In this document: positions 19,931 through 21,530 of the stretch, piece by piece
Layout of the letters: every line of letters starts with the position of its first letter
Numbering within the stretch: the stretch's first letter is position 1
DNA from: Escherichia coli
GTDB lineage: Bacteria > Pseudomonadota > Gammaproteobacteria > Enterobacterales > Enterobacteriaceae
Assembly (NCBI RefSeq): GCF_001677475.2
Contig: NZ_CP015229.1
Length of the DNA stretch: 64,000 nt
Strand: one strand, 5' to 3'
Position numbers and translations under genes: made by a program
The notes under the pieces: generated by a model
What the model was told of the DNA's origin: nothing
Database searches by the model: none
Seen by the model: the letters and a program-made list of their open reading frames with translations, nothing else

Positions 19931-21336
19931 AACTGGCACCGAACGTAAAACTATTACCGAAAGATAAGCACACAGAAGCGATTATTTTCGCGGGTGTTGA
20001 TGCTCACTCATTTGCAGAGCACTACATCATTGCACAGGCCAAAAAGGCGGGAGACCCGACGCCTCCCGTTTACCTGGGCCGTTATCAGTTAAGCGAACTG
20101 GATAACTTGCAGATTGTTGATGAGGGGCGGTACAGGGCGACAGTGATACGCGCCGGAAATATTGACGAAGCGCAGCTGCTAACCATCGCGACGAAACTGG
20201 CGATCGCCGGAGTCCAGGAAGCGCGGCTGCTTTCTGAAAATTTCGAATTGCTGGAGAAATGGACCGACCAGCTACCACGGTTGCGGGAGACATGGGAGAG
20301 AGGGGAAAGCCTGGTAATGGCAAAAAACCCCCAACGAAACACCACGCTACCGATGAGCGTTGGATCTGCCGGATACGACACGCAGCTGGATTACGTGGTT
20401 AAGGGCATTATTCCGGCGTCGTCGCTGTGCAGCATATACGGGGCGAGCGGTTCCTATAAATCATTCCTTGCGGGTTCGTGGGCGTGTCACGTTTCCACGG
20501 GCCGCCAGTGGGGAGGCCGCAGGGTTGCGCATGGTGCCGTTCTCTATGTGGTTGGTGAAGGCGGTATTGGTGTACCACGTCGTGTAAAAGCCTGGGAGGT
20601 TGTGCACGATGTACAGGTGAAAAATCTGTACCTGGTAAACCGCCCCGTCTTTCCGGCGGTCCCGCTTGATGTTGATGAAATGGTTATCGCTGCCCGTCAG
20701 GTGGAGCGGGAAACGGGTAAACCTGTACGCATGATTATTCTGGATACGCTGGCGCGTTGCTTTGGCGGCAATGATGAAAATGATTCCCGTGATATGGGGG
20801 CGTTTATCCGTGGGTGTGACGAACTGAAACGACGCACAGGGGCTACGGTGCTGGTGGTTCACCATTCCGGCAAGGATGAGACGAAAGGCGCGCGAGGTTC
20901 CAGTGCATTCCGTGCGTCACTGGATGCCGAATACCGGATACGCAGAGAGGACGCAGGAAGCGAGGCGCTGGTAATCTCATGTACCAAAATGAAGGACGCG
21001 GAGGAACTTAAAGAAGCCGCCTACGATTTGCGGGTGGTGGAGCTATTTACCGACGCTGACGGCGAATTAATTACGTCGCTGGTGGTGGTGGATAAGCCGC
21101 GTCCTCCCGTTGAACTGGAGCGCATCGAGGAGGCAGGCAACAAGACGGAAAACCATACCGCGTTATGGGGGTGCATCCGGTCGCGCACACAGAACGGTGA
21201 TAAGTGCACTATTGCGCTGTTACGTGACGATATGAAAAAGCTGGGGTATGAGATGAAGCACTTCAGCCGCTGGTTACGCAAGCTGGAAAAAGACGGGGTT
21301 ATTTATATCGACGGTGATGACGTAGGCACGCTGTAA
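19927..21336 (+). CDS. Island replication protein (RecA-fold/RepA-like ATPase, putative helicase/initiator)
   Basis: 469 aa; P-loop-like GASGSYKS, hhhhD Walker-B-like MIILDTLARC, VLVVHHSGKD; followed directly by iteron array. Confidence 0.6.
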   Translation: MKLAPNVKLLPKDKHTEAIIFAGVDAHSFAEHYIIAQAKKAGDPTPPVYLGRYQLSELDNLQIVDEGRYRATVIRAGNIDEAQLLTIATKLAIAGVQEARLLSENFELLEKWTDQLPRLRETWERGESLVMAKNPQRNTTLPMSVGSAGYDTQLDYVVKGIIPASSLCSIYGASGSYKSFLAGSWACHVSTGRQWGGRRVAHGAVLYVVGEGGIGVPRRVKAWEVVHDVQVKNLYLVNRPVFPAVPLDVDEMVIAARQVERETGKPVRMIILDTLARCFGGNDENDSRDMGAFIRGCDELKRRTGATVLVVHHSGKDETKGARGSSAFRASLDAEYRIRREDAGSEALVISCTKMKDAEELKEAAYDLRVVELFTDADGELITSLVVVDKPRPPVELERIEEAGNKTENHTALWGCIRSRTQNGDKCTIALLRDDMKKLGYEMKHFSRWLRKLEKDGVIYIDGDDVGTL

Positions 21337-21530
21337 AAAGTGGGGTGCAAAAGTGGGGAGAGTGAGCAAAACGCCCGAAAAACGCCATTATTCCCCACTT
21401 TTCAACGTATATATACCCAAAAAAGTGGGGAGTAAAAAAATCTTTATGAAACAGCACGATAAAAATCAAAAACTCCCCACCTGTAACGAGGTGGGGAAGT
21501 GTAAAAAGTGGGGCGCAAAAGTGGGGAGTG
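21336..21530. repeat. Iteron array / putative island replication origin
   Basis: At least 6 copies of AAAAGTGGGG(A/T) in direct and inverted orientation flanking an AT-rich TATATATAC core, immediately after rep gene. Confidence 0.65.

Follow-up and report, generated by a model that had tools for sequence, protein, structure and literature searches.

The 64,000-nucleotide stretch of Escherichia coli DNA analyzed here (contig NZ_CP015229.1; hereafter, the window) carries a capsid-forming PICI-type phage satellite (cfPICI), whose limits are set by core repeats recognized by comparison with the empty site (Table 1). Its genes are arranged in the order int, two AlpA-like regulators, Ant/BRO, Icd-like, DUF4222, rep, ori, ssb, PerC-like, capsid, protease, portal, adaptor, HNH, TerS, and TerL. 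PHROG matches were obtained for all of the core cfPICI genes, namely int, regulator, replicase, capsid, protease, portal, adaptor/connector (one gene recognized, 26492–26872), HNH, TerS, and TerL. Tail and lysis genes are absent from the island, the tail genes being located in the flanking prophage, and the island size falls within the cfPICI range of ~10–18 kb. One published criterion for the group is an att site unused by prophages (10.1101/2022.09.08.507074), and the site occupied here is inside a prophage terL; this mismatch concerns the classification of the island rather than its origin.

The product of rep is a predicted initiator-helicase comprising an N-terminal alpha/beta domain (residues 1 to ~132), a RecA-fold AAA_25 ATPase (~150–390), and a C-terminal winged-helix domain (~397–469). 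Residues 150–318 match Pfam AAA_25 (E=4.8e-43) and phrog_2850 matches the full length of the protein (E=3e-224). A sequence search of the PDB returned only a weak match, to RSF1010 RepA (1g8y, E=0.0075), and an NCBIfam search gave nothing useful. The protein has no primase domain; many of its relatives carry a fused one. An AF2 model of the whole protein (mean pLDDT 78.6) matched Rad51, KaiC, T7 gp4, and DnaB in Foldseek, but the RecA core swamped this search and left the C terminus uninformative, so the C-terminal domain was modelled and searched alone. The resulting model (pLDDT 93.8) has three helices and a beta hairpin, and its top matches included many winged-helix DNA binders, among them DtxR, the MarR-family proteins MepR and MexR, LexA, Fur, the IclR-type PcaR, and the DnaD N-terminal domain, with probabilities of 0.95–0.99 and TM scores of ~0.6, though with weak E-values (0.05–0.14). 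Residue 445 is located in the first turn of helix 3, the recognition helix of the predicted winged-helix domain.

The 202-bp non-coding gap that follows the rep stop codon (21337–21538) is filled by short repeats. At least six copies in both orientations, within about 200 bp of the stop and flanking an AT-rich core, had been proposed in the initial annotation, and all three points hold: we found six exact copies of the 10-mer AAAAGTGGGG, five on the plus and one on the minus strand, together with three degenerate copies. The same annotation had extended the 10-mer by an A or T, which is correct for five of the six exact copies (the 3' bases are T, A, A, A, C, and A) and wrong for the one followed by C. 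The first copy begins on the final A of the rep stop codon (TAA, 21334–21336), and all six lie within 191 bp (21336–21526). Elsewhere in the 64 kb, scanned on both strands, there is no exact copy, only scattered single matches with one mismatch at 2677, 44775, and 61289.

Table 1. Coordinates of the satellite island, its replication genes, and the associated repeats (positions within the window).
Feature	Position	Strand	Description
Satellite island	14710–30125	+	~15.4 kb, inside prophage terL gene
Island core repeat TCACGAA	14710–14716 and 30119–30125		From empty-site comparison
rep	19927–21336	+	469-aa initiator-helicase (predicted)
Rep C-terminal winged-helix domain (predicted)	21115–21333	+	Coding region of the domain
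H445, candidate specificity residue	21259–21261		Codon CAC; motif K444-H445-F446-S447-R448-W449
AAAAGTGGGG, exact copies	21336, 21349, 21421, 21504, 21517 (starts)	+
AAAAGTGGGG, exact copy	21393–21402	-
Left tandem iteron pair	21336–21358	+	AAAAGTGGGG at 21336–21345 and 21349–21358, 13 bp apart
Inverted iteron pair	21393–21402 / 21421–21430	- / +	Brackets palindromic CAACGTATATATACCCAA, 21403–21420
AT-rich tract	21431–21474		44 bp, 23% GC; directly 3' of inverted pair; candidate DNA-unwinding element
Degenerate iteron	21475–21484	-	ACAGGTGGGG; GTGGGG or TGGGG core
Degenerate iteron	21487–21496	+	CGAGGTGGGG; GTGGGG or TGGGG core
Degenerate inverted iteron pair	21475–21496	- / +	21475–21484 (-) and 21487–21496 (+)
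Right tandem iterons	21504–21536	+	AAAAGTGGGG at 21504 and 21517, 13 bp apart; degenerate copy at 21527–21536
Degenerate iteron	21527–21536	+	AGTGATGGGG; GTGGGG or TGGGG core
83-aa gene	21539–21790	+	phrog_1231; ATG at 21539; right edge of rep-ori cassette
Island SSB	21787–22212	+	phrog_44, E=1e-37; relatives annotated SSB
Second iteron-like array	29682–29838	+ / -	Other specificity (GCGGGTTA); three TTGCGGGTTA (+) and three TAACCCGC (-) flanking an 18%-GC tract

Four sites lie to the left of the AT-rich tract and five to the right, in the orientations + + - + and - + + + +, respectively, such that there are inverted pairs on both sides and the outer tandem sets are co-oriented. The left part of the array recurs in the right part as a direct repeat (21332–21385 at 21500–21553, offset 168 bp). 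The exact inverted pair forms a hairpin on single-stranded DNA folding, and the 50-bp segment 21398–21447 is ~2.4 SD below the mean stability of the island and the 10th least stable in it. A promoter/terminator scan scored the degenerate inverted pair as a hairpin resembling a terminator, confined to the minus strand, and found no sigma-70-like promoter in 21000–22000. No Rfam family matched the region, and DnaA boxes, the IHF consensus (up to one mismatch), and GATC were all absent from 21300–21560. A 145-aa GTG open reading frame spanning the array (21353–21790) was rejected as a real gene, as relatives carry single-base indels inside it, and is a mere upstream extension of the 83-aa gene.

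Lack of conservation in related islands had been named beforehand as grounds for abandoning an origin reading, and the opposite was found. The iteron positions are kept across nine E. coli relatives, in which the majority fraction is 0.92 for AAAAGTG columns (40 of 56 invariant) and 0.75 for spacer columns (32 of 123 invariant; Mann-Whitney p=2e-8), and the positions of the left tandem pair are kept in all relatives examined. The array layout was also found directly after rep in Xenorhabdus, Kosakonia, Enterobacter, Serratia, Pectobacterium, Trabulsiella, Morganella, Citrobacter, and Phytobacter. Regardless of the iteron sequence, it begins at the stop codon with two to three tandem copies, followed by an inverted pair with a spacing of ~27–28 bp that is conserved across genera, an AT-rich tract, and two to three more copies. 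The AT-rich tract, up to ~55 bp long, is found at the equivalent position in most relatives whose loci were drawn. Moreover, the iteron copies within one island vary in concert.

Based on loci with at least three iteron copies, we compared the variable iteron base with the Rep residue that precedes the near-invariant Phe of the F-x-R-W-L helix, which is residue 445 in the window. Asparagine was paired with GTGAGG cores (18 loci), histidine (8 loci) and lysine (28 loci) with GTGGGG, and serine with GTGCGG (5 loci). Residue and base matched without exception in 59 of 59 resolved loci, although these loci are related by descent and may represent perhaps 3–5 independent switches rather than 59. 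An H/N switch separates the Rep of the window from that of locus L001, to which it is 95% identical.

Comparison of sister islands indicates that rep and the array are exchanged jointly as one cassette among E. coli satellites. An island of E. coli 042 that is otherwise 93–96% identical to that of the window diverges across 20160–21753 only, and the homology of other E. coli islands to the window starts at 21534–21537. In all, roughly 636 E. coli loci cover the region. Different initiators are found in the same slot of sister islands, each with its own iterons: a DUF927 protein, as in E. coli 042, with the same TTGCGGGTTA iterons as in the second array, primase-family initiators with CTGTCTACC, and, in island L093, a homologue of P4 alpha (48% identity) with nine copies of TGTTCACC. 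The last sequence is annotated as 'ori type 1 repeat' in the phage P4 record, and a literature search for it returned primer sequences only. The cassette is not a phage module, because a megablast of 19000–23000 against phage genomes gave no match and tblastn of Rep against them detected only distant helicase cores (up to 53% identity, never full length).

We infer that the array serves this capsid-forming PICI-type satellite as an iteron-type replication origin, or at a minimum as its essential cis-acting region for Rep binding and replication, and place the probability of this reading at roughly 0.85. The iteron-type architecture claimed in the initial annotation is supported by the anatomy of the array and the domain folds of Rep, by positional conservation, concerted change, protein–DNA covariation, and cassette exchange, by the presence of P4-type iterons in the sister slot, by the lack of alternative signals in the region, and by agreement with the layout of PICI origins. 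Weighing against it are the co-orientation of the outer tandem sets and the rank of the AT-rich segment, only the 10th least stable of the island.

The most serious competitor, which we nonetheless regard as improbable, is that the array binds Rep in an auxiliary capacity (as in P4 crr, in copy control by handcuffing, or in rep autoregulation) and that replication starts elsewhere. In P4, the array that directly follows the alpha gene is crr, with the ori proper located 4.5 kb away, and islands of the E. coli 042 type contain a proximal and a distal array that share their specificity. Since initiation in P4 takes place at the distal ori, the proximal array of the window may likewise differ from the start site itself. 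However, GTGGGG-type sites form no second cluster in the island, where the other AGTGGGG copies are single (20507 and 25724), and Rep therefore has no other place to assemble. The array also holds its own AT-rich tract between iterons, which amounts to a complete PICI ori layout (PMC6092414).

Considerably less probable still is a role outside replication, with the repeats acting as operators through which a transcription regulator controls the downstream ssb and late operon. The intergenic position upstream of a gene block would suit such a role and the island does encode a PerC-like activator and AlpA-like regulators, but no sigma-70-like promoter was detected in 21000–22000 and the repeat sequence follows the C-terminal helix of Rep, not the regulators. 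In E. coli 042 the AlpA, PerC, and ssb regions are ~95% identical to those of the window and the repeats at the site are entirely different. The same island tells against a packaging signal, that is, TerS-binding sites of a cos or pac region, as its packaging module is 93% identical despite the different repeats. TerS proteins do bind repeated sites and the island has its own TerS, TerL, and HNH, yet the repeats move with rep rather than terS and are present in relatives from many genera found by Rep alone; we consider this explanation very remote. A functionless chance or low-complexity cluster, favored only by the purine richness of the strand, is equally hard to credit and is refuted by the six exact copies observed against ~0.1 expected for a 10-mer on both strands of 64 kb, by conservation of position across genera, and by the concerted change of the copies.

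With the array taken as the origin, its operation can be outlined by analogy with the origins of SaPIs and EcCICFT073. A helper phage would induce the island, and Int and AlpA would excise it; replication is thus expected after induction and excision and not constitutively. Rep would then occupy the approximately nine AAAAGTGGGG-type sites through its winged-helix recognition helix, with H445 reading the fourth base of GTG-G-GG. Once assembled on both flanks, it may melt the 23%-GC tract beside the TATATATAC palindrome and load itself as the replicative helicase. The opened strands would be coated by the island SSB, encoded two genes downstream, and priming and synthesis would presumably fall to host enzymes, Rep having no primase domain. 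The results point to the most probable replication start of the satellite and to the protein surface that would read the site.

The second array near the right end of the island has no cognate initiator encoded in the 64-kb window. It is conceivable, though we consider it doubtful, that origin specificity in this satellite family is set largely by one recognition-helix residue, that the island of the window is the product of a recent cassette swap, and that the 29682–29838 array retains the displaced DUF927 specificity and is fired in trans by the initiator of a co-resident satellite or titrates that rival initiator. If true, the orphan array would point to cross-replication or competition between satellites via their origins.

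The closest known counterparts are the origins of PICIs and SaPIs (SaPIbov1, SaPI1, and the pri-rep-ori of EcCICFT073). In PICIs, the origin directly follows rep and comprises two sets of iterons that surround an AT-rich region, and dependence of replication on rep-ori has been demonstrated for EcCICFT073 with a temperature-sensitive vector and deletions of rep and ori (PMC6092414). SaPI Reps recognize their iterons through a C-terminal winged-helix domain, and the helicase self-loads (PMC9371898). The window shares with these systems a candidate origin directly 3' of rep, short iterons around an AT-rich region, an initiator-helicase with a C-terminal winged helix (predicted here), and allele-specific rep/ori pairs (PMC6092414, PMC9371898). 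It differs in the helicase core, which is a RecA-fold AAA_25 domain as opposed to the AAA+ superfamily-3 or MCM-like cores of SaPI Reps (PMC9371898), in iteron length (10–11 bp compared with 5–6 bp), and in the co-orientation of its outer iteron sets. Neither a primase domain nor an adjacent pri gene was recognized, in contrast to pri-rep-ori. The text of the 2018 PICI paper contains no iteron sequences, these being given in a figure. Gene content and order, a size of ~15 kb, and the absence of tail and lysis genes are shared with cf-PICIs of the EcCIEDL933 family (10.1101/2022.09.08.507074; PMC10085698), and relatives of the rep-ori cassette sit in E. coli islands of cf-PICI layout, including those of O157:H7 strains. 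The island of the window differs in lying within a prophage terL gene and not at a prophage-free chromosomal site. A term search of the cf-PICI papers found no description of an origin.

P4 alpha resembles the Rep of the window in that it is the initiator-helicase of a satellite and recognizes short iterons in both orientations through a C-terminal DNA-binding part, with one array directly after its gene. Nevertheless, the Rep of the window is not homologous to alpha, lacks a primase, and has another helicase fold and another iteron (AAAAGTGGGG as opposed to TGTTCACC); it also has one cognate array, whereas P4 is bipartite, with ori plus crr. IncQ plasmid RSF1010 shares the AAA_25 helicase family, by the weak 1g8y match, and iterons beside an AT-rich region. 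IncQ replicons rely on a separate protein, RepC, to bind 20-bp iterons and on RepB' for priming at ssi sites, whereas in the window helicase and DNA-binding domain are fused in one protein and the iterons measure 10–11 bp; no RepC or RepB' homologue was found among the island open reading frames. DnaA-dependent iteron plasmids of the pSC101, RK2, and F type carry DnaA boxes and often IHF and GATC sites, from which the window array is free. This layout is already known in phage satellites, and the present findings do not overturn the current understanding but provide a well-supported annotation with a usable specificity rule. They show that the layout of PICI origins is found as well in capsid-forming PICIs with a RecA-fold (RepA/DnaB-like) helicase, as opposed to the AAA+ helicases of SaPIs.

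The gap between the rep stop codon (TAA) and the ATG (21539) of the following 83-aa gene is wholly occupied by a repeat array. Six exact copies of AAAAGTGGGG lie within 21336-21536, and a search of the 64-kb window found no further exact copy and only three scattered one-mismatch matches. Three degenerate copies retaining a (G)TGGGG core bring the array to nine sites altogether. The cluster described in the initial annotation, six or more copies in both orientations after the rep stop, is therefore real; its addition of A or T after the 10-mer holds for five exact copies, the remaining one being followed by C. 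The left tandem pair has a spacing of 13 bp, its first copy starting at the final base of the stop codon, and an inverted iteron pair then brackets the palindrome CAACGTATATATACCCAA. Beyond an AT-rich tract and a degenerate inverted pair, the array ends on the right with a tandem pair and one degenerate copy, and the block at 21332-21385 recurs at 21500-21553, an offset of 168 bp. As single-stranded DNA, the inverted pairs are predicted to form hairpins (MFE -27.3 kcal/mol, z=-2.95 versus shuffles). A long GTG ORF overlapping the array was rejected as a gene because relatives carry single-base indels in it.

Coordinates of the array and of associated features in the window
Feature	Position	Strand	Remark
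AAAAGTGGGG, exact	21336, 21349, 21421, 21504, 21517	+	
AAAAGTGGGG, exact	21393-21402	-	
Degenerate iteron	21475-21484	-	
Degenerate iteron	21487-21496	+	
Degenerate iteron	21527-21536	+	
AT-rich tract	21431-21474		44 bp, 23% GC; between inverted pair and degenerate inverted pair
Predicted ssDNA hairpins	21388-21435, 21472-21498		
rep stop codon	21334-21336		
Codon of H445	21259-21261		
Rep N-terminal domain	19927-20319		~132 residues
Second array	29682-29838		
Island	14710-30125		15.4 kb
Integrase gene	14822-16111		
terL flanks	13689-14716, 30119-30855		
Paired GTGTATTGC, 12 bp apart	14847-14867		~130 bp inside left end
Paired GTGTATTGC, 12 bp apart	30023-30043		~80 bp inside right end
AraC-family regulator	9640-10631		flanking prophage

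The intergenic regions of nine E. coli relatives align end to end with iteron positions kept. Averaged over the AAAAGTG columns of this alignment, the majority fraction is 0.92 (40/56 invariant), compared with 0.75 (32/123 invariant) for spacer columns (Mann-Whitney p=2e-8) and 0.84 for the rep 3' end. For 16 loci, drawn from E. coli, Xenorhabdus, Kosakonia, Enterobacter, Serratia, Pectobacterium, Trabulsiella, Morganella, Citrobacter, and Phytobacter, we also mapped the TG-N-GG core over the first 300 bp past the rep stop. All 16 follow one plan, with two to three tandem copies at the stop codon and then an inverted pair ~27 bp apart, followed in most by an AT-rich tract of up to ~55 bp and then two to three further copies. 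The initial annotation named a lack of repeat conservation in related islands as grounds for refuting an origin; the repeats are conserved in both comparisons.

All copies within one island share one variant, indicating concerted change: AAAAGTGGGG in the window and in the related rep loci L005-L007, AAAAGTGAGG in L001-L004, and AAAAGTGGGC/N in L008-L009. In the 59 loci where three or more GTGNGG copies lie downstream of rep, the iteron base N is predicted by the Rep residue preceding the near-invariant Phe of a K-x-F-x-R-W-L helix, H445 in the window. Asn accompanies A (18 loci), His or Lys accompanies G (8 and 28 loci, respectively), and Ser accompanies C (5 loci), with no exceptions (0/59). 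Fourteen additional loci had too few GTGNGG copies to be scored, several of which are still consistent (ATGAGGAA with Asn, AAGTGGG with His). The switch is not simply phylogenetic: the window's Rep (His, G) is 95% identical to that of L001 (Asn, A), and L003 (Asn) and L007 (His) have another N-terminal type in common. We estimate that independent switches number three to five, not 59. Residue 445 falls within helix 3 of the predicted C-terminal domain, in its first turn; helix 3 is the usual recognition helix of winged-helix domains, and Asn-adenine and His/Lys-guanine are common protein-DNA contacts.

Rep itself (469 aa) comprises three parts. Its core is an AAA_25 RecA-fold ATPase (Pfam E=4.8e-43) with Foldseek matches to Rad51, KaiC, T7 gp4, and DnaB, and a weak match to RSF1010 RepA (PDB). 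The C-terminal ~73 residues are predicted to fold into three helices plus a beta hairpin (pLDDT 93.8), and winged-helix DNA-binding domains are numerous among the nearest solved folds (DtxR, MarR-family, LexA, Fur, IclR-type PcaR, and the DnaD N-terminal domain), at probabilities of 0.95-0.99, TM ~0.6 and E-values of 0.05-0.14, as expected for a domain so small. The N-terminus is a separate alpha/beta domain. Relatives in other Enterobacterales (among them L010-L024 and L035-L064, from Xenorhabdus, Serratia, Pectobacterium, Photorhabdus, and Morganella) have the helicase and winged-helix core in common and a variable N-terminus, many being 640-720 aa long with an N-terminal extension and others ~350 aa without the N-terminal domain. 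In two Sodalis/Acerihabitans relatives (L072 and L079) the extension opens with a candidate Cys-rich zinc-finger-like motif reminiscent of primases; no primase was recognizable in the window's Rep or found beside rep.

The host is E. coli, based on appCBA (98.6% identity) and the presence of the hya operon. From the left, the island carrying the array encodes a tyrosine integrase, two AlpA-like excisionase/regulators, an Ant/BRO protein, Icd-like proteins, DUF4222, and rep, and beyond the array the 83-aa protein, SSB, a PerC-like activator, major capsid protein, prohead protease, portal, head-tail adaptor, HNH, TerS, and TerL, with no tail or lysis genes in the island. This gene set is that of a capsid-forming PICI (10.1101/2022.09.08.507074; PMC10085698). 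The satellite sits inside the large-terminase gene (terL) of a lambdoid/HK97-like prophage, with a TCACGAA core at both junctions. The rejoined flanks (14371-14720 and 30121-30470) are 98.1% identical to the intact terL of ATCC 43886, the empty site occurs in ~905 E. coli genomes, and the terL reading frame N-F-F-T-K-H-M would be regained on precise excision. The same arrangement is seen in E. coli 042 and ETEC4085. Satellites within prophages have been mentioned (PMC10085698), and terL as a satellite target was not found in the PICI literature searched. Near both island ends, paired GTGTATTGC repeats are candidate arm-type sites for the integrase. This enzyme's C-terminal third aligns with the last part of phrog_9, a terminase-large-subunit profile (positions 690-811, E=5.5e-25), which suggests that this profile contains terL::integrase read-through artefacts of similar insertions. 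Also encoded in the flanking prophage is a regulator of the AraC family that resembles YdeO/GadX (E=7e-30, below the cut-off for that family); genes for tRNA-Met and tRNA-Arg(TCT) come after it.

The E. coli 042 island, at the same prophage terL site, is 93-96% identical to that of the window outside 20160-21753, where it carries a DUF927 initiator and GCGGGTTA repeats, as does ETEC4085. The N-terminal domain of Rep is 63% identical to the N-terminus of this otherwise unrelated initiator, placing a rep-ori recombination breakpoint inside rep, and homology to other E. coli islands starts at 21534-21537, directly past the last iteron. These islands have a slot in common (DUF4222, initiator, intergenic region, the 83-aa gene in some, ssb), and each initiator type is accompanied by its own repeats: a DUF927 initiator by TTGCGGGTTA (L090), primase-family proteins by CTGTCTACC (L091 and L092), and a P4 alpha homologue (48% identity over residues 290-771) by nine TGTTCACC after the initiator (L093:2140-2450). 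The last locus, from E. coli OkiPb01696, is otherwise cfPICI-like in context (DUF4222, ssb, protease-capsid fusion). The P4 record annotates TGTTCACC as 'ori type 1 repeat', so this sister island's slot contains the iteron type annotated for P4's replication regions, ori and crr.

The window's island has a second array, in which three TTGCGGGTTA (+) and three TAACCCGC (-) surround an 18%-GC tract, the island's least stable 50 bp, with a TGTATATATATACG palindrome coming next. Half of the DUF927-type origin region of L090 is homologous to this second array, as are the origin region of L094, likewise of DUF927 type, and the distal array in the E. coli 042 island. Neither the helicase nor the DNA-binding part of a DUF927 initiator is encoded in the window, so the second array appears to be an orphan left behind by a cassette swap; it is either such an orphan or a crr-like site.

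From the anatomy, conservation, covariation, folds, and cassette exchange we infer that the array beside rep is very probably (about 0.85) the island's origin. After induction of the helper phage and island excision, the winged-helix domain of Rep would bind the iterons, and Rep would assemble on both flanks of the AT-rich tract, melt it and load itself as helicase. The island SSB would stabilize the opened DNA, with host functions providing priming and elongation. This model has been proposed for SaPI Reps (PMC9371898), and the origin layout it uses has been described in Gram-negative PICIs, with rep-ori dependence shown for EcCICFT073 (PMC6092414). A scan of the array for DnaA boxes, IHF sites and GATC found none, in keeping with an initiator that loads itself rather than with a plasmid origin dependent on DnaA.

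In P4, crr directly follows the alpha gene, and the main rival reading takes the array as a Rep-binding auxiliary region of this kind; we consider this improbable, as the island has no other GTGGGG-type cluster. A packaging site was rejected on the ground that the packaging module is constant and the repeats go with rep. Within 21000-22000 no sigma-70-like promoter was found, and the sole terminator-like hairpin, on the minus strand, is the degenerate inverted iteron pair; the array region matched no Rfam family.

Only the specificity rule relating residue 445 to the iteron base and the orphan second array are mildly new. The array was assigned to none of the IncQ, P4-alpha, and DnaA-dependent origin classes. 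By analogy, it most likely acts like a PICI/SaPI origin, most of whose features it displays: it lies 3' of rep, its iterons surround an AT-rich region, and it is served by a helicase with a predicted winged-helix domain. Inverted pairs stand on both sides of the AT-rich tract, but the outer tandem sets share one orientation, so that the array agrees only in part with the orientation rule for such origins. In contrast to SaPIs, the iterons are longer, and Rep has a RecA-fold AAA_25 rather than an AAA+ helicase and no primase domain.
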